A DNA stretch of 33,867 nt from a virus (Duplodnaviria > Heunggongvirae > Uroviricota > Caudoviricetes): the IMG/VR virus record IMGVR_UViG_2778261506_000006. One strand, written 5' to 3'. A program made the translations under genes and the position numbers. The notes below the pieces were generated by a model. The model made no database searches, was not told the DNA's origin, and saw only the letters and a list, made by a program, of their open reading frames with translations. Each line of letters begins with the position of its first letter. The stretch's first letter is position 1. Shown one piece after another: positions 3,895-33,867 of this stretch.

Positions 3895-4166
3895 GTATTC
3901 GTATTGAAATTGGCGAACGTTATGTCGTTACCAGTGACAGCTTTCAGTTTATTCTCCACGAGAAAAAGAGAGCGGAAAGCGGTAAAAACGCCGGTCAGGA
4001 ATGGCTGTCGGTGGTTGGTTATTACCCGAAATTAAGCCAGCTCGTTTCCGGCCTGATGCATCACGATATTCTGACCGGAAGCGCAAAGTCTTTTGCTGAT
4101 TTAAACGCGCAGGTTGAGCAACTCAGCAAGCGTTGTTCAGAGGTTTTTGGCTCATATGGCAGTTAA
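3891..4166 (+). CDS. Early hypothetical protein (P2 orf83 position)
   Basis: ATG 3891 with SD ggaga; 91 aa. Confidence 0.7.
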   Translation: MSIRIEIGERYVVTSDSFQFILHEKKRAESGKNAGQEWLSVVGYYPKLSQLVSGLMHHDILTGSAKSFADLNAQVEQLSKRCSEVFGSYGS

Positions 4167-6432
4167 AGCCTCCGGGCGTTGTGTCCCTCCGTCAGCATTT
4201 GCCGCAGGCACCGGTAAGACGTTTACCGGTGCTTATGCATGGAACGCGCCACGCGAGGCCGTCGGGCGCGAAAGACCCCTTACACGTGACGAGATGCGTC
4301 AGGTGCAAGGTGTTTTATCCACGATTAACCGCCTGCCTTACTTTTTGCGCTCGCTGTTTACTTCACGCTATGACTACATCCGGCGCAATAAAAGCCCGGT
4401 GCACGGGTTTTATTTCCTCACATCCACTTTTCAGCGTCGTTTATGGCCGCGCATTGAGCGTGTGAATCAGCGCCATGAAATGAACACCGACGCGTCGTTA
4501 CTGTTTCTGGCAGAGCGTGACCACTATGCGCGCCTGCCGGGAATGAATGACAAGGAGCTGAAAAAGTTTGCTGCCCGTATCTCATCGCAGCTTTTCATGA
4601 TGTATGAGGAACTCAGCGATGCCTGGGTGGATGCGCATGGCGAAAAAGAATCGCTGTTTACGGATGAGGCGCAGGCTCACCTGTATGGTCATGTTGCTGG
4701 CGCTGCACGTGCTTTCAATATTTCCCCTCTCTACTGGAAAAAATACCGTAAAGGGCAGATGACCACGAGGCAGGCATATTCTGCCATTGCCCGTCTGTTT
4801 AACGATGAGTGGTGGACTCATCAGCTTAAAGGCCAGCGTATGCGCTGGCATGAGGCGTTACTGATTGCTGTCGGGGAGGTCAATAAAGACCGTTCTCCTT
4901 ATGCCAGTAAACATGCCATTCGTGATGTGCGCGCGCGCCGCCAGGCAAATCTGGAATTTCTTAAATCGTGTGACCTTGAAAACAGGGAAACCGGCGAACG
5001 CATCGACCTTATCAGTAAGGTTATGGGCAGTATTTCTAATCCAGAAATTCGCCGGATGGAGCTGATGAACACCATTGCCGGTATTGAGCGTTACGCCGCC
5101 GCAGAGGGTGATGTGGGGATGTTTATCACGCTGACCGCGCCGTCAAAGTATCACCCGACACGTCAGGTCGGAAAAGGCGAAAGTAAAGCCGTCCAGCTAA
5201 ATCACGGCTGGAACGATGAGGCATTTAATCCAAAGGATGCGCAGCGTTATCTCTGCCGCATCTGGAGCCTGATGCGCACGGCATTCAAGGATAATGATTT
5301 ACAGGTCTACGGTTTGCGTGTCGTCGAGCCACACCACGACGGAACGCCGCACTGGCATATGATGCTTTTTTGTAATCCACGCCAGCGTAACCAGATTATT
5401 GAAATCATGCGTCGCTACGCGCTCAAAGAGGATGGCGACGAAAGAGGAGCTGCGCGAAACCGTTTTCAGGCAAAACATCTTAACCGGGGCGGTGCTGCGG
5501 GATATATCGCGAAATACATTTCAAAAAACATCGACGGCTATGCACTGGATGGTCAGCTCGATAACGACACCGGCAGGCCGCTGAAAGACACTGCAGCGGC
5601 TGTTACCGCATGGGCGTCAACGTGGCGCATCCCGCAATTTAAAACGGTTGGCCTGCCGACAATGGGGGCTTACCGTGAACTACGCAAATTGCCTCGCGGC
5701 GTCAGCATTGCTGATGAGTTTGACGAACGCGTTGAGGCTGCACGTGCCGCCGCAGACAGTGGTGATTTTGCGTTGTATATCAGCGCACAGGGTGGGGCAA
5801 ATGTTCCGCGTGATTGCCAGACTGTCAGAGTCGCCCGTAGCCCGTCGGATGACGTTAACGAGTACGAGGAAGAAGTCGAGAGAGTGGTCGGCATTTACGC
5901 GCCGCATCTCGGCGCGCGTCATATTCATATCACCAGAACGACGGACTGGCGCATTGTGCCGAAAGTTCCGGTCGTTGAGCCTTTGACTTTAAAAAGCGGC
6001 ATCGCCGCGCCTCGGAGTCCTGTCAATAACTGTGGAAAGCTCACCGGTGGTGATACTTCGTTACCGGCTCCCACACCTTCTGAGCACGCCGCAGCAGTGC
6101 TTAATCTGGTTGATGACGGTGTTATCGAATGGAATGACACGGAGGTCGTGAGGGCGCTCAGGGGGGCATTAAAACACGACCTGAGAACACCAAATCGTCA
6201 GCAAAGAAACGGAAGCCCGTTAAAACCACATGAAATTGCACCATCGGCCAGACTGACCCGGTCGGAAAGAATGCAAATTACCCGTATCCGCGTTGACCTT
6301 GCTCAGAACGGTATCAGGCCGCAGCGATGGGAGCTTGAGGCGCTGGCGCGTGGCGCGACCGTAAATTATTACGGGAAATCTTTCAATTATCAGGTCGCTG
6401 ATGAGTGGCCTGGATTTTTGTTACCCATTTGA
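4156..6432 (+). CDS. A: Replication initiation protein A (rolling-circle HUH endonuclease); start uncertain (ATG 4156, or TTG 4147 giving 761 aa, or TTG 4114)
   Basis: About 760 aa; HUH-type motif PHWHMMLF and active-site tyrosine region AGYIAKYISKNIDGY; position after orf83. Confidence 0.88.
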   Translation: MAVKASGRCVPPSAFAAGTGKTFTGAYAWNAPREAVGRERPLTRDEMRQVQGVLSTINRLPYFLRSLFTSRYDYIRRNKSPVHGFYFLTSTFQRRLWPRIERVNQRHEMNTDASLLFLAERDHYARLPGMNDKELKKFAARISSQLFMMYEELSDAWVDAHGEKESLFTDEAQAHLYGHVAGAARAFNISPLYWKKYRKGQMTTRQAYSAIARLFNDEWWTHQLKGQRMRWHEALLIAVGEVNKDRSPYASKHAIRDVRARRQANLEFLKSCDLENRETGERIDLISKVMGSISNPEIRRMELMNTIAGIERYAAAEGDVGMFITLTAPSKYHPTRQVGKGESKAVQLNHGWNDEAFNPKDAQRYLCRIWSLMRTAFKDNDLQVYGLRVVEPHHDGTPHWHMMLFCNPRQRNQIIEIMRRYALKEDGDERGAARNRFQAKHLNRGGAAGYIAKYISKNIDGYALDGQLDNDTGRPLKDTAAAVTAWASTWRIPQFKTVGLPTMGAYRELRKLPRGVSIADEFDERVEAARAAADSGDFALYISAQGGANVPRDCQTVRVARSPSDDVNEYEEEVERVVGIYAPHLGARHIHITRTTDWRIVPKVPVVEPLTLKSGIAAPRSPVNNCGKLTGGDTSLPAPTPSEHAAAVLNLVDDGVIEWNDTEVVRALRGALKHDLRTPNRQQRNGSPLKPHEIAPSARLTRSERMQITRIRVDLAQNGIRPQRWELEALARGATVNYYGKSFNYQVADEWPGFLLPI

Positions 6433-6692
6433 GTAAAAATGCAGCGTGATTTTATATGCCTTTGAATGGATTATGCGAAGCGCCTCTAAGGCAGATGAGG
6501 AGCAATAGCATGCTGAAGTAGAAGGCTAAATTGTATTGAATCGCTAGCATGTAATTTAAGGCAGCTATTTGATTCGAGTCATAAAAGAGCATCTATTTCG
6601 GCTAATAAAACCATTGCGAGTGACCTTTTGTCGAAGCATAATTCATCTCGAGCGAAGTCTTGCTAGTCTTTCATCGGAATGATGACAGGCGC

Positions 6693-6722
6693 AAAAAAAC
6701 CACCCTGGCAGGTGGTTTTTTT
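6693..6722. terminator. Bidirectional rho-independent terminator (A7-ccaccc-tggca-ggtgg-T7)
   Basis: GC stem flanked by A-run upstream and T-run downstream; downstream of gene A (+) and of the small minus-strand ORF. Confidence 0.7.
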
Positions 6723-6734
6723 GTTTGAAGCATA

Positions 6735-6848
6735 CTAAAGAATAATACTTACATGGATATTACTGACGTTTACTGACAAACCACTTGGACTACCATATGG
6801 ATAGCCAAAGAGGGCCAGAACGAGAATGCAGTAATAGCACTTCTTCAT
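6735..6848 (-). CDS. Putative 37-aa hydrophobic small protein (MKKCYYCILVLALFGYPYGSPSGLSVNVSNIHVSIIL)
   Basis: ATG at 6848 (minus) preceded by AGGAGGAG; ends just before the bidirectional terminator; not in the supplied track (below 60 aa). Confidence 0.35.
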   Translation of the reverse strand: MKKCYYCILVLALFGYPYGSPSGLSVNVSNIHVSIIL

Positions 6849-7418
6849 ATCTCCTCCTGTAAGCAGAGGGCAATTTCCGCCGATATATGCGCTTCTAAGG
6901 CGGAGTTACTATTTAGCGAAGTCTTGCCCTGAAATAATGCTCTGTTTAAACGCAAAGTGATCTGGCATATCACCGAACAGAGAGCCTGAACAACACAACA
7001 TATAGTATGTCGTTGTTTCTGGTTGCATTTTATGTTGTGTAATACTGGTTTTGCATCAAGGATGTTTGAGCTTTTTTTGATATAGCTCAAAGTAAAAAGC
7101 AGGGACTACGGATGATAAGGTATTGAAAGCAATGTAAATTTTTTAAAGTTATTGGTGGCTAAAAAATGCACGATTTCAATATGGCGGACTTAAATAAGCA
7201 ATTAAAAAAGTCATAAATATCACTAAAATCATGGTGTTACGTTTTTTGTGGGAGCTGCGGTGACGCTTAAGTTGATTTGTCATTAAATAAGCCGTGCATG
7301 CAACAAGTGAATGTTTTTGCATGCGTCGGGGATGCCCGTTCCCGCTGCTTGCGGTCAGAGCTGGTGCGGATCCATAGTATCTATGCAACTGCATTAAAAC
7401 CGCCACATGAAGCGGGCG

Positions 7419-7437
7419 GGCGAGGCGGGGAAAGCAC
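7419..7437. other. cos: cos site: 19-nt P2 cohesive-end sequence GGCGAGGCGGGGAAAGCAC
   Basis: Exact match to the P2/P4 cohesive end as I remember it; lies between A and Q as expected for a P2 prophage. Confidence 0.65.
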
Positions 7438-7473
7438 CGCGCGTAAGATAAACAGAAGAGCGAAGGATTATGG

Positions 7474-7528
7474 TTGAGTATTTGTGTTTTTGTACATATG
7501 ATAAAAAGGTGTTTACGCTTAAAAACAC
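7474..7528 (+). promoter_or_regulatory. Candidate sigma70 promoter for the cargo cassette (-35 TTGAGT 7474-7479, 17-bp spacer, -10 TATGAT 7497-7502) with inverted repeat GTGTTT-N8-AAACAC (7509-7528) before the RBS
   Basis: Read from sequence; hexamers and spacing are near consensus; untested. Confidence 0.3.
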
Positions 7529-7543
7529 ATCAAAGGAGATGAT

Positions 7544-8845
7544 ATGGAAAATATAAAGATTGATAAGTTTCTCACTATTCAAAAAGTTGATATTCCTCTT
7601 AAGAAAGTGAATATATTTATTGGGCCTCAGGCACAGGGGAAAAGTGTCATTGCAAAGCTAATAAAATATTTTAAAGATTATCCTATGGATATACTACGAG
7701 CTTCAACAGAGGGTAAAACTAAAAGAGACATATTGAAGGAGCAAAAGAATAAGTTTAGTAAAATTTTCCCTCAGCAGTATTGGGCTGATGATGAGTTTTT
7801 TATTGAGTATAGTAATAAGCACTATTGGGTGCGGATTACTAATCGAAAAAATAGCAAAGGGTCATTGAAAATAGCCCTTTCTGAGAATTTAACGAAGACG
7901 ATTGCTAAACTTCGTTTGATTGTACGAAAGGATTTAGATGAAAATATTGAGAATTCACTTGCAGAAAGCGTTACGAGAAGACGTAAACGCGGAATTGAAC
8001 ATGAATTGCGAGTATGTCTTTCTCTAGGATTGTTTTCAGAACCAGAAACAAAGCTTGAAAGTGTTTTTTATATCCCCGCAGGGCGCTCTTTTTTTGCTAA
8101 TTTGCAAAAAAATGTGTTTTCATTTTTATCCAGTAGTATAGAAATTGACTACTTTTTGACAGAGTTTGGTTCTCTGTATGAACAAACAAAAAAATTATTT
8201 AACCAAGATTACATGATTAGGATGCTTAGGGGGGCTGTGCCTCAACATGTTAATAAACTTGTGGAGGAGTTGATTTGCGGAAAATATATAACAGAAAAGG
8301 GTGAGGATTTTATTCGTCATGCTGCTAAGAAGACGAATCTTAACAACTCGAGCTCAGGGCAGCAAGAAGCGTTACCAATGGCTTTAATGTTATCCTCATG
8401 GCCGTATTTACAGTCTATGACTAGTAAGAGTTTTATTATTGAGGAGCCGGAGGCTCATCTGTTTCCTTCTGCCCAAGCAAAAGTTGTATCTTTAATAGCC
8501 TCAGCGTATAACCAAGCAGAAAGCTATTGTAGCTATACAATAACAACACATAGTCCATATATTCTAAGTGCCTTCAATAATTTGATTCAAGCAGGTAATG
8601 CATTGAAGTGTATTAAGGGCAAGAATAATACCGATATCGAACGCTTATATAAGCTTGTTCCAGAGTCTCAAATTATTGATTTTGATGATGTGACAGCTTA
8701 TATGGTTAATGCTGGGAAAGTGACGGAAATACTGGATTCCGAACTAAATATATTAGATGCGAATGAAATAGATAGGATTTCCTCTATTTTTTCAGAGACT
8801 TTTGATGCATTGATTGATATCGAATATTCGGCTACTGTGAATTAG
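7544..8845 (+). CDS. AAA15/ABC-type ATPase (OLD/AriA/PtuA-like N-terminal ATPase fold), 433 aa; candidate defence-system ATPase
   Basis: Walker A GPQAQGKS, signature-like LSSGQQEALPMALML, Walker B/D-loop FIIEEPEAHLFP, H-loop TTHSPYIL; strong SD AAGGAG 5 nt before ATG; AT-rich relative to phage core. Confidence 0.8.
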   Translation: MENIKIDKFLTIQKVDIPLKKVNIFIGPQAQGKSVIAKLIKYFKDYPMDILRASTEGKTKRDILKEQKNKFSKIFPQQYWADDEFFIEYSNKHYWVRITNRKNSKGSLKIALSENLTKTIAKLRLIVRKDLDENIENSLAESVTRRRKRGIEHELRVCLSLGLFSEPETKLESVFYIPAGRSFFANLQKNVFSFLSSSIEIDYFLTEFGSLYEQTKKLFNQDYMIRMLRGAVPQHVNKLVEELICGKYITEKGEDFIRHAAKKTNLNNSSSGQQEALPMALMLSSWPYLQSMTSKSFIIEEPEAHLFPSAQAKVVSLIASAYNQAESYCSYTITTHSPYILSAFNNLIQAGNALKCIKGKNNTDIERLYKLVPESQIIDFDDVTAYMVNAGKVTEILDSELNILDANEIDRISSIFSETFDALIDIEYSATVN

Positions 8846-8853
8846 GTGATTGA

Positions 8854-9291
8854 ATGTGTAAAAATTGCAAAGGAAAAACAAAAAATAAAATCATTGTGCT
8901 ATCTGATAAAGGAACGTCAACGCAATTGTCAGTCACAAATGATAATGAGTTGGAAGTTGAGCATAAGTTAATAGATGGTTGCGCTATTGTTGTTGGAGAG
9001 CGGTGTGATCATTATTTGAAGATTTATAACAATCAGGATGTTTCACATCTTTTTGTTGAACTTAAAGGAAGTGATGTTGAAAAAGCTGTTAAACAGATAG
9101 TGACAACTTTAAAGTCAGGTGTGATTAATGTAGGTGCTAAAGAAAAAAAACATGGTGCTATTGTTAGCACTAGGAATCCGCTAAACTCAACAGAAACCAA
9201 TAGGTTAAAGAAGAAAATTCTTTTGAGTGACGGAGTGAATTTGCATTTCTATAAAATGAAGGCGCAGCAAAAAATAACTTCTTTTACATGA
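8854..9291 (+). CDS. Small 145-aa partner protein, possible nuclease-like effector (Cys pairs, D-H...NN...H and D...ELK motifs); function unknown
   Basis: ATG 8854 eight nt after ATPase stop with SD AGGTGA; internal repeated motif I(I/L)(V/L)LSD; no homolog recognised by eye. Confidence 0.7.
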   Translation: MCKNCKGKTKNKIIVLSDKGTSTQLSVTNDNELEVEHKLIDGCAIVVGERCDHYLKIYNNQDVSHLFVELKGSDVEKAVKQIVTTLKSGVINVGAKEKKHGAIVSTRNPLNSTETNRLKKKILLSDGVNLHFYKMKAQQKITSFT

Positions 9292-9304
9292 AGTGTTCTC
9301 TTGT

Positions 9305-9328
9305 ACAGGCATGCATTTGCATGCCTGT
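9305..9328 (+). terminator. Perfect inverted repeat acaggcatgca / tgcatgcctgt (11-bp arms, 2-nt centre) after the cassette; probable terminator with weak U-tract
   Basis: Read from sequence; followed by cgtgtaatctttt. Confidence 0.45.
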
Positions 9329-9394
9329 CGTGTAATCTTTTACACTATATTTGTGTTGGTTCTAATCTTGTTATGTGTTTGTTTCGGTGATGGG

Positions 9395-10414
9395 TCATAA
9401 TGAATAAGTTCGAAAGCGAAATACATCTTCGCCAACCCAACAGTTAATTTCTTTACATCGCTCTTGGAGGAACGTTAGCTCGTTGCGTACAAAGACTTGT
9501 GCTGCTTTTGTTACATCTCCAAATCCTCCTGTGTTGTTGGGCATCATTCCTATCATTTGGGGAGGCACGCGATGAGCACTCATTAGATCTTCAGCACTTG
9601 CTTTTTTGATATTAAAAAAATCGTCCTTCGTTGCCACTTCACTGAGCGGGATAATTTTAATGCCGTCGGCTTTCCCCTGCGGGGCATAGAGAAACAGATT
9701 TTTAAAGTTATTGCGGCCTTTCGACTTAACCATGTTTTCGCGAAGCATTTCGATATCGTTGCGATCCTGCACGGCATCAGTGACGTACATGATGTATCCG
9801 GCATGAGCGCCGTTTTCGTAATACTTGCGGCGGAACAGCGTGGCCGACTCATTCAGCCAGGCAGAGTTAAGGGCGCTGAGATATTCGGGCAGGCCGTACA
9901 GCTCCTGATTAATATCCGGCTCCAGCAGGTGAAACACGGAACCGGGCGCGAAGGCTGTCGGCTCGTTGAAGGACGGCACCCACCAGTAAACATCCTCTTC
10001 CACACCACGGCGGGTATATTTTGCCGGTGAGGTTTCCAGCCTGATAACTTTACCGGTGGTGCTGTAACGCTTTTCCAGAAACGCATTACCGAACACCAGA
10101 AAATCCAGCACAAAGCGGCTGAAATCCTGCTGGGAAAGCCACGGATGCGGGATAAATGTCGACGCCAGAATATTGCGTTTGACGTAAATCGGGGAGCTGT
10201 GATGCACGGCAGCACGCAGGCTTTTTGCCAGACCGGTAAAGCTGACCGGTGGCTCATACCATCTGCCGTTACTGATGCACTCGACGTAATCCAGAATGTC
10301 ACGGCGGTCGAGCACCGGCACCGGCTCACCAAAGGTGAATGCCTCCATTTTCGGGGCGCTGGCGGTCATTGTTTTTGCCGCAGGTTGCGGTGTTTTCCCT
10401 TTTTTCTTGCTCAT
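9395..10414 (-). CDS. Q: Portal protein Q
   Basis: 339 aa; first gene leftward of P; overlapping start/stop with P; matches P2 Q. Confidence 0.92.
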   Translation of the reverse strand: MSKKKGKTPQPAAKTMTASAPKMEAFTFGEPVPVLDRRDILDYVECISNGRWYEPPVSFTGLAKSLRAAVHHSSPIYVKRNILASTFIPHPWLSQQDFSRFVLDFLVFGNAFLEKRYSTTGKVIRLETSPAKYTRRGVEEDVYWWVPSFNEPTAFAPGSVFHLLEPDINQELYGLPEYLSALNSAWLNESATLFRRKYYENGAHAGYIMYVTDAVQDRNDIEMLRENMVKSKGRNNFKNLFLYAPQGKADGIKIIPLSEVATKDDFFNIKKASAEDLMSAHRVPPQMIGMMPNNTGGFGDVTKAAQVFVRNELTFLQERCKEINCWVGEDVFRFRTYSL

Positions 10415-21052: not shown

Positions 21053-23239
21053 ATGAGCACAAAATTCAAAACCGTTATCACCACTGCCGGTGCAGCAAAG
21101 CTGGCAGCGGCAACCGCGCCGGGAGGGCGGAAGGTCAACATTACCACGATGGCCGTCGGGGATGGCGGTGGTAAATTGCCTGTCCCGGATGCCGGACAGA
21201 CCGGGCTTATCCACGAAGTCTGGCGACATGCGCTGAACAAAATCAGCCAGGACAAACGAAACAGTAATTATATTATCGCAGAGCTGGTTATTCCGCCGGA
21301 GGTGGGCGGTTTCTGGATGCGTGAGCTTGGCCTGTACGATGATGCTGGAACGTTAATTGCCGTGGCGAACATGGCTGAAAGTTATAAGCCAGCTCTTGCC
21401 GAAGGCTCAGGGCGTTCGCAGACCTGCCGCATGGTCATCATCGTCAGCAGTGTGGCCTCAGTGGCGCTGACCATTGACACCACAACGGTGATGGCAACGC
21501 AGGATTACGTTGATGACAAAATTGCAGAACATGAACAGTCACGACGTCACCCGGACGCCTCGCTGACCGCCAAAGGTTTTACTCAGTTAAGCAGTGCGAC
21601 CAACAGCACGTCTGAAACACTCGCCGCAACACCAAAAGCGGTAAAAGCAGCATATGACCTTGCTAACGGGAAATACACTGCACAGGACGCCACCACCGCG
21701 CGAAAAGGCCTTGTCCAGCTCAGTAGCGCCACCAACAGCGATTCTGAAACGCTTGCGGCAACGCCAAAGGCGGTTAAGACAGCGTATGACCTTGCTAACG
21801 GGAAATACACTGCACAGGATGCCACCACAGCGCGAAAAGGTCTTGTCCAGCTCAGTAGCGCCACCAACAGTGATTCTGAAACGCTGGCTGCAACACCAAA
21901 AGCGGTGAAGTCTGCCTATGACAATGCTGAAAAACGTCTTCAGAAAGATCAGAACGGTGCGGATATTCCGGGAAAGGATACCTTCACGAAAAATATCGGT
22001 GCCTGTCGTGCTTATAGCGGCGCTTTGAGCACTGAAGCCGGAAACTGGACAACCGCTCAGTTTATTGAATGGCTGGATTCCCGTGGTGCATTTAATCATC
22101 CGTACTGGATGTGCAAAGGCTCCTGGTCATATGCAAATAACAAAATCATTACGGATACCGGATGTGGTGATATCCACCTGGCTGGTTGTGTCGTCGAGGT
22201 CATGGGAACTAAATCTGCAATCACTATCCGAGTGACCACGCCGACAACATCAAGTGGTGGCGGTACAACCAGCGCGCAATTCACTTACATAAATCATGGG
22301 GACGGCTACTCCCCCGGCTGGCGTCGTGACTGGAATCGTCAGGGCGACTCAATGACCGGAACGATTAATCAGGATGGCGGAAGCCAGAATGCCTATATGT
22401 CTACGGCCTTATGTTCAGGCACCAGAGGCGGCAAAAAATATCTCAGAAAGTTTCGTGGTGGAGAAGGAGATACTATCTGGCATGAAACAGTTCAGGGCGG
22501 GGTAATTCGCTGGGCGACAGGAAACAATGACGCTCAGGAAGAATTATCACTCAGCTCCGCTTATGGTCTCCGTTCAAGAGGTGAAATTACATCACTCAGT
22601 GCTAATGGTCTGCGCATTGCTTATGGCAATTATGGATTCTTTATCAGGAATGATGGCGGCAGCACTTATTTTATGTTGACTAAATCAGGTGACAGATTAG
22701 GTACTTATAATAATTTAAGACCACTGATTATAAATGATGCCACGGGTGCTGTATCAATGGGGCATGGCCTGAGTGTTACTGGTGATATTGTCTCAAGTAC
22801 CAAAGTACGTGCCGGTAGCGGGAAAAAGTTCACGGTCAGCAGCAGCAATACATCCACGAAGGAAGCCGCATTCAATTTGTGGGGAAACTCAAGTCGTCCT
22901 GTGGTGGCTGAATTAGGTGATGATGCAGGCTGGCATTTTTACAGTCAGAGAAATACAGATAACAGCATCACTTTTGCTGTTAACGGGCAGGTATCACCAT
23001 CTAACTATAGTAATTTTGATTCACGCTATGTCCGGGATATCCGGCTTGGTGGTGCTGCCACATACAAACCTGCGAACAATGGCATGACATGGACACATCA
23101 GGCACCGTCCGGGTGTGTATATTCCGGCATTATTGTTCAGGATACCGGCTCAAACTCTGCCGATAACATTGGTGGCGTATATTACAGACCGGTGCAGAAA
23201 TACATTAACGGGACTTGGTATAACGTGGCGCAGGTATAA
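21053..23239 (+). CDS. H: Tail fibre protein H (728 aa) with conserved N-terminus, internal 44-aa tandem repeats and a divergent AT-rich C-terminal receptor-binding region
   Basis: Position after I, followed by chaperone G; repeat QLSSATNS.SETLAATPKAVK.AYDLANGKYTAQDATTARKGLV occurs about 2.6 times. Confidence 0.9.
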   Translation: MSTKFKTVITTAGAAKLAAATAPGGRKVNITTMAVGDGGGKLPVPDAGQTGLIHEVWRHALNKISQDKRNSNYIIAELVIPPEVGGFWMRELGLYDDAGTLIAVANMAESYKPALAEGSGRSQTCRMVIIVSSVASVALTIDTTTVMATQDYVDDKIAEHEQSRRHPDASLTAKGFTQLSSATNSTSETLAATPKAVKAAYDLANGKYTAQDATTARKGLVQLSSATNSDSETLAATPKAVKTAYDLANGKYTAQDATTARKGLVQLSSATNSDSETLAATPKAVKSAYDNAEKRLQKDQNGADIPGKDTFTKNIGACRAYSGALSTEAGNWTTAQFIEWLDSRGAFNHPYWMCKGSWSYANNKIITDTGCGDIHLAGCVVEVMGTKSAITIRVTTPTTSSGGGTTSAQFTYINHGDGYSPGWRRDWNRQGDSMTGTINQDGGSQNAYMSTALCSGTRGGKKYLRKFRGGEGDTIWHETVQGGVIRWATGNNDAQEELSLSSAYGLRSRGEITSLSANGLRIAYGNYGFFIRNDGGSTYFMLTKSGDRLGTYNNLRPLIINDATGAVSMGHGLSVTGDIVSSTKVRAGSGKKFTVSSSNTSTKEAAFNLWGNSSRPVVAELGDDAGWHFYSQRNTDNSITFAVNGQVSPSNYSNFDSRYVRDIRLGGAATYKPANNGMTWTHQAPSGCVYSGIIVQDTGSNSADNIGGVYYRPVQKYINGTWYNVAQV
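21584..21922 (+). repeat. Tandem repeat inside H: 132-bp unit in about 2.6 copies (21584-21715, 21716-21847, partial 21848-21922)
   Basis: Near-identical nucleotide units read directly; in-frame. Confidence 0.85.
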
Positions 23240-23242
23240 TTT

Positions 23243-23770
23243 ATGCAGCATTTGATAAATATAACGGCAGGTAATCCAAAAACGGTTGAACAATATCAAT
23301 TGACAAAAGACTTTGATGTTGTCTGGTTTTTTTCAGAAGATGGTAAGAACTGGTACGAAGAACAAAAGTATTTTGCTGATGACACGCTAAAAATAGCGTA
23401 CGACAAAGATAATATCATCCGCTATGTGGAAAAGGATGCGACAGCTATCAGACCGGATGGATTAAGTGTTGTTGAAGTGGCGGATATTACTGCTAACCGG
23501 CGGGCGAACATTTCAGGGAACTGGATGTTTAAGGACGGCAAAGTGATTAAACGCATTTATACGGCAGAGGAATTGCAGCAGCAGGCAGAAAACCGGAAAG
23601 CCAGACTTCTTGCAGATGCTGAATTCGTGATTTTGCCGCTGGAGCGCGCGGTCAGACTGAACATGGCAACAGATGAGGAGCGTAGCCGACTGGAAGCATG
23701 GGAACGCTACAGCGTTCTGGTCAGTCGTGTGGATCCTGCAAATCCTGAATGGCCGGAAATGCCGCAATAA
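23243..23770 (+). CDS. G: Tail fibre assembly chaperone G (175 aa)
   Basis: Size and position as P2 gpG; AT-rich like the H C-terminus. Confidence 0.88.
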
Positions 23771-23955: not shown

Positions 23956-25266
23956 TTAACTAAAAATTTCGCTCAACCCAGTGACAAATATTTCTCTGAT
24001 CTTACGGCGGAAAATATCACCAAAGTCAGAGTTTGAAACATCCGTGCGCCAGATAGTTTTAGCAACACCCTGCCGATCTTCTGAAAAGACAGTAATGATG
24101 AGTTCATCAGCAATAATTTGAAAGTCAAATGTAGGTCGGAAACGAGGATACGAAGTACCAGGGGTATCAAATCCTATGTTTAACCAAGAATGACGGGGCT
24201 CAGATTTATAGTATCCAGTTTCAACTCCAGACAGATGACCTCCGATCTCTTCTATGATGTTATTACGAACTGAAATTATTTCGCTTACAGCTTCCCTGAT
24301 TTTACTCATGTAAACACTATTTATCTCAGCACCTTGAGCTTCCAACCTTTTTTTGATTTCTAAAAGAATCTCACCATCCGCCAATGTAGGTTTATTTTCG
24401 CTCATCCTCTTCAACTCCTTTCTCAACTCTTGTACCGTCTGAAATCTACTATTCAATAGCGGTGAAAAACCACGGTCAAACAATGCAAGCATTGAAAGTG
24501 CCCAACCATTAGTAGCGGCATGAATACTTTCCGATACTCCATCGCGTTGGTGAGGTCGACGCCCAGTCTCAGATTCTTCTAAAACATACGGGCTTTTTCC
24601 TGTTAATACGTAAAATAAAATCCCTACTACAAAGGTAATATCGCTTCGAGGATCTCGTTTATTAGGACTGTCTGGCGCAAGTTCATTGAGCCTTAAGAAA
24701 CGATTGCCTAGCTCTTGGCCATTATCAGTAGCATGAGCGTTCTTATCTTGAGGTTGCCATGCGAGACCGAAATCTACCAATACAGCATCAGCCGGGTTAT
24801 TACACCGGAGTATAATATTATCAGGTTTGATATCTCTGTGAATGCCATCACGAGAATGATAGTATTCGACTATATCCAACAGGCGATCTATCATATCAAC
24901 CGCATCTTGAAATGACATAGCCCCATTTTCCTCTATGTACTCACGTAATGTTGGGCCTTCAACTATTTCTGTAACTAAGTAAAGTTTGTAATTCATTTGT
25001 TCATAACGATGGCAATTACTTTCTATAAGAGATGGAATTCCCGGATGTTCATAGGTATAGAGAGCGACTGCTTCGCGATACATACGAGCTCGTCGCTCAG
25101 GGTCTTTCTGGCTTTTCAATACTTTTAAAAATGCTCTCATGTCAGAACGAACCACTGGACACGCCACGCCTTGGCCACCGCTTTTCTTGTTACCATCCGC
25201 TACCCAGCCTGCCGCCTTCGCATCCAATTTGTCATTCCACACGCCACCAACCATTTTCTCCCCCAT
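23956..25266 (-). CDS. Hanks-type Ser/Thr protein kinase with about 180-aa C-terminal domain of unknown function; cargo at the P2 Z/fun position
   Basis: Catalytic loop HRDIKPDNIIL and DFGLA motif in N-terminal half; antisense to flanking late genes; AT-rich; ATG 25266 (alternative ATG 4 codons in). Confidence 0.85.
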   Translation of the reverse strand: MGEKMVGGVWNDKLDAKAAGWVADGNKKSGGQGVACPVVRSDMRAFLKVLKSQKDPERRARMYREAVALYTYEHPGIPSLIESNCHRYEQMNYKLYLVTEIVEGPTLREYIEENGAMSFQDAVDMIDRLLDIVEYYHSRDGIHRDIKPDNIILRCNNPADAVLVDFGLAWQPQDKNAHATDNGQELGNRFLRLNELAPDSPNKRDPRSDITFVVGILFYVLTGKSPYVLEESETGRRPHQRDGVSESIHAATNGWALSMLALFDRGFSPLLNSRFQTVQELRKELKRMSENKPTLADGEILLEIKKRLEAQGAEINSVYMSKIREAVSEIISVRNNIIEEIGGHLSGVETGYYKSEPRHSWLNIGFDTPGTSYPRFRPTFDFQIIADELIITVFSEDRQGVAKTIWRTDVSNSDFGDIFRRKIREIFVTGLSEIFS

Positions 25267-25630: not shown

Positions 25631-26821
25631 ATGAGTGACTATCATCACGGCGTGCAGGTGCTGGAGATTAACGACGGCACCCGCGTCATTTCCACCGTAT
25701 CCACCGCCATTGTTGGCATGGTCTGCACGGCCAGCGATGCGGATGCGGAAATCTTCCCCCTCAATAAACCGGTGCTGATTACCAATGTGCAGAGCGCAAT
25801 TGCAAAGGCCGGTAAAAAAGGCACGCTGGCGGCGTCGTTACAGGCCATCGCTGACCAGTCAAAACCGGTCACCGTTGTTGTGCGCGTGGAAGACGGCACC
25901 GGCGACGACGAGGAAACGAAACTCGCGCAGACCGTTTCCAATATTATCGGCACCACCGACGAAAACGGTCAGTACACCGGACTGAAAGCCCTGATGGGGG
26001 CTGAGTCGGTTACCGGCGTTAAACCGCGCATTCTCGGCGTACCGGGACTGGACACCAAAGAGGTCGCCGTCGCACTGGCATCGGTATGCCAGGAACTGAA
26101 TGCCTTCGGGTATATCAGCGCATGGGGTTGTAAAACCATTTCCGAGGTGAAAGCCTACCGCCAGAATTTCAGCCAGCGTGAGCTGATGGTTATCTGGCCG
26201 GATTTCCTCGCATGGGATACGGTTACCAGTACCACCGCCACCGCGTATGCCACCGCCCGTGCGCTGGGTCTGCGCGCTAAAATCGACCAGGAGCAGGGCT
26301 GGCATAAAACGCTGTCCAACGTCGGGGTGAACGGTGTTACCGGCATCAGTGCATCCGTCTTCTGGGATTTGCAGAAGCCAGGCACTGATGCTGACCTGCT
26401 GAACGAGGCAGGCGTCACAACGCTGGTTCGCCGCGACGGTTTCCGTTTCTGGGGTAACCGTACCTGCTCTGATGACCCGCTGTTCCTCTTTGAAAGCTAC
26501 ACACGCACCGCGCAGGTACTGGCCGACACGATGGCTGAGGCGCACATGTGGGCTATTGATAAGCCCATCACCGCAACGCTGATTCGCGACATCATTGACG
26601 GCATCAATGCCAAATTCCGTGAACTGAAAAACAACGGTTATATCGTGGATGGCACATGCTGGTTCAGCGAAGAATCCAACGATGCGGAAACCCTCAAGGC
26701 CGGAAAACTGTATATCGACTACGACTATACCCCGGTGCCTCCTCTCGAAAACCTGACCCTGCGCCAGCGTATTACTTCCAGATACTTGGCAAGTCTGGTC
26801 ACTTCGGTTAACAGCAATTAA
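25631..26821 (+). CDS. FI: Tail sheath protein FI (396 aa)
   Basis: Size and position identical to P2 gpFI. Confidence 0.93.
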   Translation: MSDYHHGVQVLEINDGTRVISTVSTAIVGMVCTASDADAEIFPLNKPVLITNVQSAIAKAGKKGTLAASLQAIADQSKPVTVVVRVEDGTGDDEETKLAQTVSNIIGTTDENGQYTGLKALMGAESVTGVKPRILGVPGLDTKEVAVALASVCQELNAFGYISAWGCKTISEVKAYRQNFSQRELMVIWPDFLAWDTVTSTTATAYATARALGLRAKIDQEQGWHKTLSNVGVNGVTGISASVFWDLQKPGTDADLLNEAGVTTLVRRDGFRFWGNRTCSDDPLFLFESYTRTAQVLADTMAEAHMWAIDKPITATLIRDIIDGINAKFRELKNNGYIVDGTCWFSEESNDAETLKAGKLYIDYDYTPVPPLENLTLRQRITSRYLASLVTSVNSN

Positions 26822-32334: not shown

Positions 32335-32361
32335 AAAAAATAAGCCCGTGTAAGGGAGATT
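32335..32361. repeat. attR: attR core: second copy of the 27-bp att direct repeat
   Basis: Identical to 478-504. Confidence 0.85.
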
Positions 32362-32505
32362 ACACAGGCTAAGGAGGTGGTTCCTGGTACAGCTAGCATT
32401 TTATGGGTTATGTTTTTCAGCGAAACGGATGATAACCTTAATAAATGCAGCTGTATGTGATCGGTTTCTAAGAATTTTCCATCCGGGAAAAATAATCGAA
32501 ATTAA

Positions 32506-33867
32506 TCACTTACCGTGTGGGTTACGCGTGGTTTCCCCGGAGAAATTACGCATCAGCAGAGCGTAATTGAGCTCAAGATCCTGCGGGACCGGGAGCCACA
32601 CAGTATAACCATCGCCTGGTGCGACCGGCATCGCTTCACCTTTGGCGTTTTCCATGTGCTCAAGGGTAAAGTTAATGTTGCCTTGCGGCGTCATCAGCTC
32701 AAGGCTGTCGCCAACGGAGAATTTATTTTTCACCGCTACCGCCGCGAGGTCCCCCTTGCGCTCACCGGTAAACTCACCAACAAACTGCTGGCGGTCAGAA
32801 ACTGAATAACCGTATTCGTAGTTCTGATAATCGTCGTGAGTATGACGACGCAGGAAACCTTCGGTATAGCCACGATGCGCCAGACCTTCCAGAGTTTCCA
32901 GCAGGCTGGTATCGAACGGTTTGCCCGCAGCGGCGTCATCGATAGCTTTACGGTAAACCTGTGCGGTGCGTGCGCAATAGTAGAAAGATTTAGTACGGCC
33001 TTCGATTTTCAGCGAATGCACGCCCATTTTGGTCAGGCGTTCTACATGGGCGATGGCGCGCAGATCTTTCGAGTTCATGATGTAAGTGCCGTGCTCATCT
33101 TCAAACGCGGTCATATACTCGCCCGGACGCTGGGCTTCTTCGATCATAAACACTTTGTCGGTTGGCGCGCCGATACCCAGCGTCGGCTCAACATTTTGCA
33201 CCGGAATCGGCTCGTACTTGTGTACGATGTTGCCAACGTCATCTTCTTTCCCTTCCTGGACGTTGTACTCCCAGCGGCAGGCGTTGGTGCAGGTACCCTG
33301 GTTCGGATCGCGCTTGTTGATATAGCCAGAGAGCAGGCAGCGACCGGAGTAGGCCATGCACAGTGCGCCGTGAACGAAGATCTCGATCTCCATATCCGGC
33401 ACCTGATTGCGGATCTCTTCAATCTCTTCCAGCGACAGCTCGCGAGAGAGGATCACGCGGGTCAGGCCCATTTGCTGCCAGAATTTCACCGTCGCCCAGT
33501 TTACGGCGTTAGCCTGCACCGAGAGGTGGATCGGCATTTCAGGGAAGTGCTCACGCACCAGCATAATCAGCCCTGGATCGGACATAATCAGCGCATCCGG
33601 CCCCATTTCCACCACCGGTTTCAGGTCACGGATAAAGGTTTTCAGCTTGGCGTTGTGCGGTGCAATGTTGACCACGACATAAAACTTTTTCCCCAGCGCG
33701 TGGGCTTCATTGATGCCGAGCTGAAGATTTTCGTGGTTGAATTCGTTGTTGCGCACACGCAGGGAGTAACGCGGCTGGCCCGCATAAACAGCATCTGCGC
33801 CATAAGCGAAAGCGTAACGCATATTTTTCAGCGTTCCCGCCGGGGAAAGGAGTTCCGGTTTAAACAT
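32506..33867 (-). CDS. yegQ: Host U32-family peptidase YegQ (also called RlhA), 453 aa
   Basis: Full-length ORF starting at the window edge (ATG 33867); recognised from sequence and neighbourhood (ogr-proximal prophage end abuts yegQ as in the K-12 ogrK/yegZ locus). Confidence 0.85.
   Translation of the reverse strand: MFKPELLSPAGTLKNMRYAFAYGADAVYAGQPRYSLRVRNNEFNHENLQLGINEAHALGKKFYVVVNIAPHNAKLKTFIRDLKPVVEMGPDALIMSDPGLIMLVREHFPEMPIHLSVQANAVNWATVKFWQQMGLTRVILSRELSLEEIEEIRNQVPDMEIEIFVHGALCMAYSGRCLLSGYINKRDPNQGTCTNACRWEYNVQEGKEDDVGNIVHKYEPIPVQNVEPTLGIGAPTDKVFMIEEAQRPGEYMTAFEDEHGTYIMNSKDLRAIAHVERLTKMGVHSLKIEGRTKSFYYCARTAQVYRKAIDDAAAGKPFDTSLLETLEGLAHRGYTEGFLRRHTHDDYQNYEYGYSVSDRQQFVGEFTGERKGDLAAVAVKNKFSVGDSLELMTPQGNINFTLEHMENAKGEAMPVAPGDGYTVWLPVPQDLELNYALLMRNFSGETTRNPHGK

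Follow-up and report, generated by a model that had tools for sequence, protein, structure and literature searches.

Location and gene content of the cassette

The analysed stretch of DNA, hereafter the window, comprises 33,867 nucleotides of viral sequence (Caudoviricetes; IMG/VR record IMGVR_UViG_2778261506_000006). Two intact, co-directional genes filled the AT-rich interval of 1.96 kb that separates cos from the portal gene Q (9395–10414, minus strand, with its end at 9395) (Table 1). Both open reading frames were present on the plus strand as initially annotated, with lengths of 433 and 145 amino acids. The GC content was 0.32–0.39 over positions 7550–9350, compared with 0.52–0.60 in genes A, Q and P on either side. 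The prophage surrounding the cassette in the window appeared complete.

Table 1. Features of the cassette and its boundaries, in coordinates of the window.
Feature	Position	Strand	Basis and remarks
P2-type cos core, 19-nt cohesive end	7419..7437		Exact GGCGAGGCGGGGAAAGCAC match; left edge of the cargo block
Block without nucleotide homology to P2	7444..9593		blastn and P2 annotation; replaces P2 ~26–400
Candidate sigma-70 promoter, TTGAGT-17-TATGAT	7474..7502	+	Consensus scan 9/12; weak; 41 nt upstream of the ATPase start
Shine-Dalgarno sequence AAGGAG	7533..7538	+	Read from the sequence; 5 nt ahead of the ATPase ATG
wonA homologue, 433-aa OLD-type ABC ATPase	7544..8845	+	ORF, Pfam, PADLOC, motifs, AF2 model, E24377A orthologue listing
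Shine-Dalgarno sequence AGGTGA for the partner	8844..8849	+	Read from the sequence; overlaps the ATPase stop codon
wonB homologue, 145-aa predicted PD-(D/E)xK-variant nuclease	8854..9291	+	ORF, PADLOC, conservation, AF2 fold, E24377A WonB identity
Strong hairpin and second small hairpin between the convergent partner and Q genes	9303..9345		RNA fold

The cos core was the same 19 nt as the core annotated as cosL (1–19) in the P2 reference AF063097. In that genome the gap between cosL and Q, whose stop lies at 187, measures 167 bp, compared with approximately 1.96 kb here, in agreement with the initial reading of a long AT-rich insert where P2 has a very short cos–Q distance. A blastn comparison of the P2 A–cos–Q junction with the window gave homology on the left side over 7390–7443. 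On the right side P2 homology restarted only at 9594, within the 3′ end of Q, so the replaced block extends over approximately 7444–9593 and takes in the divergent last ~66 codons of Q together with the cassette. The comparison with the P2 reference confirmed the insertion, which lies in the known P2 gpA–cos–gpQ defence hotspot. A search of the cassette and the upstream non-coding stretch against Rfam gave no match above the threshold; CyaR was found elsewhere in the window.

The ATPase

Pfam assigned only residues 22–342 of the 433-aa protein to a family, namely AAA_15/AAA_21 (E 4e-20 for AAA_15), and returned no TOPRIM match, consistent with the proposal that no TOPRIM or other effector domain is fused to the ATPase. 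The OLD/AriA/PtuA-like motif set that had been named from the sequence was present in full and invariant in 62 homologues. It comprised Walker A (G27..G32-K33-S34), the signature (S270-S271-G272-Q273-Q274-E275), the Walker B/D-loop (E300-E301-P302-E303-A304-H305) and the H-loop (T335-H336-S337-P338). The Q-loop residue, R181, was also invariant in these sequences. Every ATPase motif was kept, and the loss of conserved catalytic residues that had been named as evidence against the reading was not seen.

In the AF2 model of the ATPase (pLDDT 87), the C-terminal extension (approximately residues 343–433) formed a short beta unit and a long helix. The solved structures nearest to the model were PtuA (retron I-A and Septu), Rad50 and GajA, although TM-scores to PtuA were only approximately 0.4 at an identity of 11–17%. 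The PD-T4-4_A profile covered residues 234–426, including the C-terminal extension (E 1e-16). Membership of the ATPase in the OLD/AriA/PtuA-like ABC clade, without a fused effector, was supported.

The partner protein

The motif set of the 145-aa partner consisted of D41, D52, E69-L70-K71 and Q81. D41, E69, K71 and Q81 were kept in 129/129 sequences, and D52 in 128/129. The AF2 model (pLDDT 85) had a restriction-endonuclease-like fold, with BamHI, EcoT38I, PaqCI, MUS81, FokI and Cap4 as the best Foldseek matches. The family profile placed the D..ELK..Q motif on the active site of the Rai1 nuclease in a borderline match; as a single sequence, the partner had no meaningful match among PDB chains. 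The weak Pfam matches of its relatives were all to PD-(D/E)xK families. The conserved residues and the modelled fold support the assignment of the partner as a putative minimal PD-(D/E)xK-type nuclease, smaller than the effectors AriB, PtuB and GajB, as had been noted, with the D...ELK stretch as its predicted site.

The initial annotation had also considered an HNH site in a D-H...NN...H stretch, which was rejected. Among the 129 relatives these residues were not conserved: H53 was replaced by Y, W or F, N59 and N60 fell in gap columns, and H65 was replaced by E. Pfam and PADLOC gave no HNH match for the partner. The two cysteine pairs described for the protein were retained in part. C5 and C51 were present in 129/129 sequences and C43 in 125/129, flanking D41 and D52; C2 was not conserved.

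Gene junction and expression signals

The stop codon of the wonA homologue (TAG, 8843–8845) was separated from the partner ATG at 8854 by a gap of 8 nt. The two genes, initially described as a translationally coupled pair, do not overlap. Among homologous pairs the commonest junction was a 4-nt overlap of the ATGA type, and most loci had gaps of −4 to +7 nt.

The promoter candidate ascribed to the cassette did not stand out from chance, with 10 promoter-like sites observed in the region and 10.2 in shuffled sequences; expression in the lysogen is therefore an assumption. Downstream of the partner, the hairpin at 9303–9329 had a GC-rich stem of 10–11 bp with folding energies of −23.5 kcal/mol on the plus strand (z −5.7) and −23.1 kcal/mol on the minus strand (z −7.0). 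It was not called by the terminator scan of the region and had no U-tract. The terminator that had been proposed for the cassette was thus recovered as a strong hairpin without these two hallmarks, possibly a bidirectional terminator lacking a U-tract between the partner gene and Q.

Assignment to the WonAB family

The cassette had initially been considered a candidate for an undescribed anti-phage system. Profile searches placed both proteins in a named system of the same architecture, WonAB, which was defined and tested in the WASA-1 prophage of V. cholerae (Adams et al. 2025, Nat Microbiol; PMC12137116). WonAB consists of an OLD-type ABC ATPase and a PD-(D/E)xK-variant nuclease, and both genes are needed for defence (PMC12137116). 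Supplementary Table 4 of that study, which compiles the MacSyFinder hits for WonAB, gives E. coli E24377A (NC_009801.1) as hit #2, with ECE24377A_RS06440 listed as WonA and RS06445 as WonB (PMC12137116). The E24377A locus shared 99.8% DNA identity with positions 7438–9394 of the window over 100% of the length, and its listed WonB was identical to the 145-aa protein. The authors' listing of this near-identical locus by its tag means that the system had already been described. The pairing of an ATPase with a nuclease-like protein in a two-gene cargo unit was upheld: as in the WonAB architecture, the ABC ATPase gene is followed in the same direction by an adjacent gene for a partner of approximately 140 aa. 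The observation of the cassette is real, but it is not new.

In V. cholerae, defence is abolished by the WonA mutations K34A, R182A, E300A and H333A and by the WonB mutation K71A (PMC12137116). Each of the mutated residues had a conserved counterpart here: K33, R181, E300/E301 and H336 of the ATPase in the 62 homologues and K71 of the partner in 129/129 sequences, with the correspondence to V. cholerae WonA made by motif and position. The peptides GPQANGK and CDWILS, encoded by the published V. cholerae qPCR primers, fit the Walker A and D52 motifs. Additionally, the family profile aligned to the Geobacillus WonB of Table 4 with an hhalign probability of 99.7% (E 3.8e-26). Membership was assigned from the authors' profile hit and from this motif correspondence, the MacSyFinder detection being taken from the authors' table via the E24377A locus. 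The cassette is very probably a representative of the WonAB anti-phage family carried by a P2 prophage of E. coli.

The cassette and the V. cholerae system share the gene order (ATPase, then a partner of approximately 16 kDa), a prophage location and the same ATPase motif set at nearly equal residue numbers, and both partners are of the predicted PD-(D/E)xK type with K71. They differ in the carrier, which is an E. coli P2-like prophage with the cassette between cos and Q, compared with the Vibrio WASA-1 prophage. V. cholerae wonAB is preceded by a conserved putative regulator, whereas no regulator gene was present upstream here. V. cholerae wonAB was not found by an exact search with the published wonA qPCR primer in viral and metagenome contigs, by a primer-peptide search of the collected proteins or by a word-seeded search with a modified query. 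The V. cholerae A1552 proteins have the accessions AWB73975.1 (WonA) and AWB73976.1 (WonB).

Relationship to other systems

The pair was also identified as P2-hotspot system #81 of Rousset et al. 2022 (Table S5B), with 45 occurrences between gpA and gpQ. Its proteins match those of the cassette exactly and it likewise lies in E. coli P2-like prophages, but the catalogue entry is labelled 'AAA_15/AAA_21' and was neither cloned nor named. In the supplements of Rousset et al. the pair occurred in the catalogue table only and not among the cloned systems. Neither protein was present in the DefensePredictor supplements, and a 2026 study of P4 and P2 tested P4 loci only. Searches of paper texts for 'PDC-M29' or for the protein accessions gave no hits.

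Adams et al. place every WonAB homologue within the homologues of the 'OLD-ABC ATPase + novel REase' operon, which occur in 0.96% of genomes (PMC12137116). As far as it is described there, this operon (from the ABC-ATPase survey of Krishnan et al. 2020, via PMC12137116) has the same two-component architecture and appears to be a purely computational class, broader than WonAB.

In the PADLOC profile search that had been suggested as a check, both proteins matched the candidate PDC-M29 (Payne et al. 2024, bioRxiv; FAM_00005>>FAM_02872), which has the same A>>B gene order. PDC-M29A was the top match of the ATPase and PDC-M29B the sole match of the partner. The matches were moderate, at E-values of 2.3e-31 and only 1.6e-4, respectively, and are profile E-values rather than calls at PADLOC's own thresholds; the clade is accordingly a diverged branch of the PDC-M29 candidate. 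The PDC-M29 models matched 62/62 relatives of the ATPase and 110/129 relatives of the partner. PDC-M29 has been found embedded in RM, BREX or DISARM loci (Payne et al. 2024).

PD-T4-4 (Vassallo et al. 2022) is likewise an operon of an ABC ATPase and a small nuclease, and was considered by Adams et al. to be similar in organisation to WonAB (PMC12137116). It differs in its inserts and C-terminal extension and in its location in an ICE-like element, and the PD-T4-4_B profile did not match the partner at E-values up to 1.

PARIS resembles the cassette as a two-gene abortive system of the P2 and P4 hotspots, and AriA was the second PADLOC match of the ATPase (E 3e-25). Like the effector of PARIS, which cleaves tRNA, WonB is suspected of having an RNA target. 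The PARIS partner is, however, a DUF4435/TOPRIM protein of approximately 35 kDa, compared with the 145-aa putative PD-(D/E)xK protein here. PARIS was rejected as an assignment, as the partner had a PD-(D/E)xK-like fold and no DUF4435, AriB or TOPRIM match in Pfam and PADLOC at E-values up to 1. Simple sequestration followed by release has been excluded as a model for WonAB (PMC12137116).

Septu and the retron I-A PtuAB pair also combine an ABC ATPase with a small nuclease, and PtuA provided the closest solved structures. PtuB is, however, an HNH nuclease, and Septu was rejected on the lack of conserved HNH residues and of any HNH match in the partner. OLD and Gabija GajA were rejected since no TOPRIM is fused to the ATPase and the match to OLD (6p74) was confined to the Walker motifs.

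Distribution and gene pairing

In 77 of 79 partner loci, the gene directly upstream of the partner encoded an ATPase homologue in the same orientation; the other two were cut by the contig end. The 79 loci spanned Gammaproteobacteria, Cyanobacteria, Bacteroidota, Verrucomicrobiota, Campylobacterota, Planctomycetota, Acidobacteriota, Myxococcota, Chloroflexota and Desulfobacterota, and the pairing of the two genes was strict across at least ten phyla. It was also observed in P. aeruginosa, in Nostocales and in a lambdoid prophage of Enterobacter. Close homologues formed two-gene islets in the chromosomes of Serratia, Enterobacter and Kosakonia. In a phage GenBank collection, the cassette had no nucleotide match and two weak protein matches, both on unannotated gut phage contigs.

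The cassette was rare among complete E. coli genomes (10/5,426). The same 90% clusters contained truncated WonB variants of 104–131 aa and partial ATPase variants, and the E24377A prophage that carries the cassette was degraded. Such a pattern would suit decaying cargo, a hitch-hiking remnant without current function in the prophage. For the window this explanation appears very unlikely, as both ORFs are full length with every catalytic residue, the surrounding prophage looks complete and the exact proteins occurred on hundreds of contigs; Moura de Sousa et al. is also cited against it.

Proposed mechanism

In V. cholerae, WonA is predicted to form a head-to-head dimer around two composite ATP sites, and WonB is predicted to dock on the surface of the dimerised C-terminal extensions of WonA (PMC12137116). 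In uninfected cells WonB is held at a low level and degraded by Lon (PMC12137116). Activation follows the start of phage DNA replication and needs ATP binding or hydrolysis by WonA and the catalytic lysine of WonB; translation then halts, no phage structural proteins are produced and the infected cell arrests without lysis, i.e. by abortive infection (PMC12137116). Since the chromosomal DNA stays intact (PMC12137116), the substrate of WonB is likely tRNA or rRNA.

By analogy, the 433-aa protein would take the role of WonA as an OLD-type ABC ATPase dimer with composite ATP sites. The 145-aa protein would act as WonB, a minimal PD-(D/E)xK nuclease docked on the ATPase C-terminal extensions. After the onset of phage replication, the complex would become active and cause translation arrest and abortive infection. 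Homology to the V. cholerae system suggests that the lysogen expresses the E. coli copy and is protected by it from other phages, and that the copy may act via the same translation-arrest mechanism.

DNA, rather than RNA, would be the target in a Septu- or Gabija-like mode of defence, with the ATPase sensing or loading on foreign DNA and the partner cutting phage or host DNA. The nearest folds of the partner are indeed DNA endonucleases (BamHI, FokI, EcoT38I, NucS and MUS81), and the solved structures nearest to the ATPase (PtuA, Rad50 and GajA) are all DNA-associated. We consider DNA targeting unlikely nonetheless, because both the toxicity and the defence of V. cholerae WonB spare genomic DNA, and because translation stops whereas ICP1 DNA replication falls only 2.7-fold (PMC12137116). 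RNases such as Rai1/DXO likewise have PD-(D/E)xK folds.

Overproduced WonB is toxic in V. cholerae, but it is non-toxic without WonA or with ATPase-dead WonA, the opposite of what an antitoxin would bring about, and defence needs both genes (PMC12137116). A toxin–antitoxin or addiction module, in which the nuclease would be the toxin and the ATPase its antitoxin and which would serve mainly to stabilise the prophage, is therefore highly improbable, even though Pfam labels AAA_21 as 'putative AbiEii toxin, type IV TA' and the pair travels on mobile elements. The chromosomal islets of Serratia, Enterobacter and Kosakonia, which have no element to stabilise, also argue against it.

Within the WonAB assignment, we tentatively propose a joint reading, which we regard as possible though rather doubtful. 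The cysteine triad may constitute an undescribed metal or cluster site in the WonB family and, separately, the P2-borne E. coli branch may differ from the Vibrio system in its trigger or phage range. A cysteine site of this kind might gate the nuclease or set its position, for instance by serving as a switch that depends on redox state or metal, or by recognising RNA.

Significance

With this assignment, WonAB is among the cargo systems carried at the E. coli P2 gpA–cos–gpQ hotspot. The discovery value of the locus is small, as the family has been named and experimentally validated and the locus itself is already contained in published tables. The copy is nevertheless native to E. coli and lies on a phage that is well understood, which suits it to finding the target of WonB and the activator of WonA, and owing to the genetically tractable E. 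coli/P2 setting, the P2-borne copy could reveal the RNA target and the trigger of WonAB. Beyond the main text of the WonAB paper (PMC12137116), the analysis adds the strictness of the gene pairing across at least ten phyla and the conserved cysteine triad of WonB.

Identity of the cassette

Judged by sequence, the two-gene cassette between cos and the portal gene Q is already known: it is a WonAB homologue with existing catalogue entries, located in an established hotspot. WonAB, from the WASA-1 prophage of Vibrio cholerae, consists of an OLD-type ABC ATPase (WonA) and a 'variant of the PD-(D/E)xK nuclease fold' (WonB), and its defence needs both genes (Adams et al. 2025, PMC12137116). Supplementary Table 4 of that paper lists, as hit #2, NC_009801.1 ECE24377A_RS06440 as WonA and RS06445 as WonB. 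This E. coli E24377A locus was 99.8% identical to window positions 7438–9394, and the WonB sequence printed for it was identical to the window partner protein. The Geobacillus WonB of the same table was matched by the partner family profile with 99.7% probability. In V. cholerae, defence was abolished by WonA K34A, R182A, E300A and H333A and by WonB K71A (PMC12137116). By motif and position, these residues correspond to K33, R181, E300/E301 and H336 of the ATPase and K71 of the partner.

The pair was also present in other catalogues. The gpA-gpQ region of P2-like phages is a defence hotspot, and system #81 (45 occurrences; Table S5B) comprises exactly these two proteins (Rousset et al. 2022). 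Across all supplementary files of that study, the cassette protein sequences were found only in the Table S5B catalogue, which places the pair outside the cloned systems. With PADLOC, the best match of the ATPase was PDC-M29A (2.3e-31) and the sole match of the partner was PDC-M29B (1.6e-4). PDC-M29 is a 'guilt-by-embedding' candidate (cassette FAM_00005>>FAM_02872), and its models matched 62/62 ATPase relatives and 110/129 partner relatives. The initial annotation had read the general nature of the cassette, an ATPase-plus-nuclease defence cargo, correctly; its suggestion that the system might be undescribed is superseded by the E24377A entry and the #81 and PDC-M29 matches.

Prophage setting and cassette boundaries

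The window contained a complete P2-like prophage that spans the integrase, replication gene A and the late genes, in this order, with CyaR flanking. We read CyaR and the 453-aa ORF at the right end of the window, which on ORF length alone we take to be yegQ, as marking the chromosomal insertion site. The E24377A copy was inserted at pflA/pflB, a different site from the one read here.

The proposed two-gene cargo was real and correctly delimited, with a GC content of 0.32–0.39 versus 0.52–0.60 in adjacent phage genes. The short cos-to-Q distance of P2 was confirmed with the reference (cosL 1–19, Q stop 187), which has 167 bp where the window phage has 1.96 kb. P2-junction homology (blastn) was found only at 7390–7443 (cos region) and again from 9594, delimiting a foreign block of approximately 7444–9593, into which the divergent 3' end of Q falls. 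Since the last ~66 codons of Q (within 9395–9593) had no P2 match by blastn, whereas the remainder of Q and P were 97% identical, a recombination boundary of the cargo block was placed inside Q. The two cassette genes were separated by 8 nt, with the Shine-Dalgarno sequence overlapping the upstream stop codon. The cassette had been credited with its own candidate promoter and terminator: the promoter candidate was not above chance expectation, and the hairpin at the putative terminator was strong, without a U-tract.

Features of the window prophage
Feature	Position	Strand	Remarks
Replication gene A	4114–6432		
Stretch from gene A end to cos	6433–7389		~0.95 kb
Bidirectional terminator hairpin	6692–6723		perfect, 13 bp; near end of 37-aa ORF
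37-aa ORF	6735–6848	minus	MKKCYYCILVLALFGYPYGSPSGLSVNVSNIHVSIIL; strong AGGAGG ribosome-binding site
P2 cos core	7419–7437		19 nt; GGCGAGGCGGGGAAAGCAC
ATPase ORF (wonA homologue)	7544–8845	plus	433 aa
Partner ORF (wonB homologue)	8854–9291	plus	145 aa
Portal gene Q	9395–10414	minus	
Tail-fibre genes H and G	21053–23770		
Z/fun cargo gene	23956–25266	minus	436 aa
Sheath gene FI	25631–26821		
CyaR sRNA	32338–32423	minus	Rfam, 100.7 bits
ORF at right end	32506–33867	minus	453 aa

Conserved features of the two proteins

The ATPase matched only AAA_15 (E 4e-20) and AAA_21 in Pfam. The motif set noted initially held throughout 62 homologues (40–79% identity), in which Walker A, the ABC signature SSGQQE, the Walker B/D-loop IIEEPEAH and the H-loop THSP were invariant; as noted, no TOPRIM domain was fused to the ATPase. 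In its AlphaFold model (pLDDT 87), an ABC/Rad50-type head carries helical inserts and a C-terminal extension. The best-matching solved structures were PtuA (Septu, retron I-A), Rad50 and GajA (all TM ~0.4), and the sole PDB sequence match, OLD (6p74), was confined to the Walker motifs.

No family for the partner was found in Pfam or NCBIfam. An exhaustive profile search yielded 2,320 cluster representatives at E <= 1e-3, and the 150 matches listed were all stand-alone proteins, mostly of 130–150 aa. Among 129 diverse members, C5, D41, C51, E69, K71 and Q81 were invariant, and N29, C43, D52, L70, G72, A78 and P109 near-invariant. In the partner model (pLDDT 85), D52 starts one hairpin strand and E69-x-K71 ends the other, followed by the Q81-bearing helix; this predicted layout is the PD-(D/E)xK arrangement. 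The best Foldseek matches were BamHI, EcoT38I, PaqCI, MUS81, FokI and Cap4, the D..ELK..Q motif of the family profile aligned with the Rai1 active site, and the weak Pfam matches among partner relatives were all PD-(D/E)xK families. The initial annotation had offered HNH or PD-(D/E)xK; model, Foldseek and conservation favoured the latter, and HNH was rejected: most members have Y, W or F at the H53 position, the usual residue at H65 is E, and N59 and N60 align to gap columns.

Of the two cysteine pairs proposed alongside this H/N stretch, three residues were conserved: C5 (129/129), C43 (125/129) and C51 (129/129). Their conservation equals that of the catalytic residues and they flank D41 and D52, in regions of lower model confidence. 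The family alignment suggests a putative metal site at C5/C43/C51; the main text of the WonAB paper mentions neither cysteines nor a metal site in WonB (PMC12137116).

Distribution and genomic settings

Eighty partner-family loci were fetched from species-representative genomes, and 79 had a partner ORF. An ATPase homologue lay directly upstream on the same strand in 77/79 loci, the remaining two ending at a contig edge, and the gap usually fell between −4 and +7 nt. The record titles assign the loci to Gammaproteobacteria, Cyanobacteria, Bacteroidota, Verrucomicrobiota, Campylobacterota, Planctomycetota, Acidobacteriota, Myxococcota, Chloroflexota, Desulfobacterota and further groups. The pair occupies settings in which mobile defence cargo is typically found. 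In P. aeruginosa (loci L002–L004) it has a HigBA module on one side and a Pf-like filamentous prophage on the other; it also occurs in an Enterobacter lambdoid prophage and in IMG/VR phage contigs, and chromosomes of Serratia, Enterobacter and Kosakonia carry it as a two-gene islet. The window cassette occurred in 10/5,426 complete E. coli genomes, and its exact proteins on hundreds of contigs. The clusters (90% identity) to which these proteins belong also included truncated WonB (104–131 aa) and partial ATPases from E. coli, suggesting occasional decay.

Predicted mode of action

By analogy with the V. cholerae work, the E. coli copy would most likely act as V. cholerae WonAB does. There, the predicted assembly is a WonA dimer with WonB bound to its dimerised C-terminal extensions (PMC12137116). 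WonAB acts once phage DNA replication has begun, capsid production is blocked and infected cells arrest without lysis (PMC12137116). Overproduced WonB is toxic only with active WonA present, which disfavours both a toxin-antitoxin relationship and simple sequestration; WonB is also unstable, being a substrate for degradation by Lon (PMC12137116). Because translation halts while DNA remains intact, the suspected target is a tRNA or rRNA. Vibrio WonAB placed in E. coli protected against Vequintavirinae (PMC12137116).

Other variable sites in the prophage

The stretch between gene A and cos takes the place of P2 orf91-tin-old and contained no ORF >81 aa. Of 5,426 complete E. coli genomes, 183 had it (149 near full length, 86–99% identical), and ~6433–7195 was conserved in 3/3 aligned copies. 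Among the matches listed, 11/12 records had no annotated feature under the match, and no Rfam family reached threshold in the stretch. In two records inspected, the stretch was paired with other cargo between cos and Q. The variable slot in this P2-like lineage is the Q side of cos; in P2 it is the A side. The cos-to-Q cargo of the E. coli W P2-like prophage (L095, 4665–6663) encoded a 477-aa AAA ATPase and a 190-aa hypothetical protein, and that of strain 2196 (L096, 4638–6813) an ImmA/IrrE peptidase and two hypothetical proteins.

E. coli W and strain 2196 also had the 37-aa ORF of the stretch, with a few substitutions. The ORF was flanked by short repeats (AGCGAAGTCTTGC and GCGCYTCTAAGGCRGA, twice each) and had no Pfam or NCBIfam match. 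It may encode a small hydrophobic peptide or represent a module of the type I toxin kind.

At the other P2 hotspot, the Z/fun position, the 436-aa cargo gene lay between the tail-fibre genes and FI. Its product matched PADLOC PD-T4-6 over its full length (E 3.7e-174), so that the prophage carries two defence systems.
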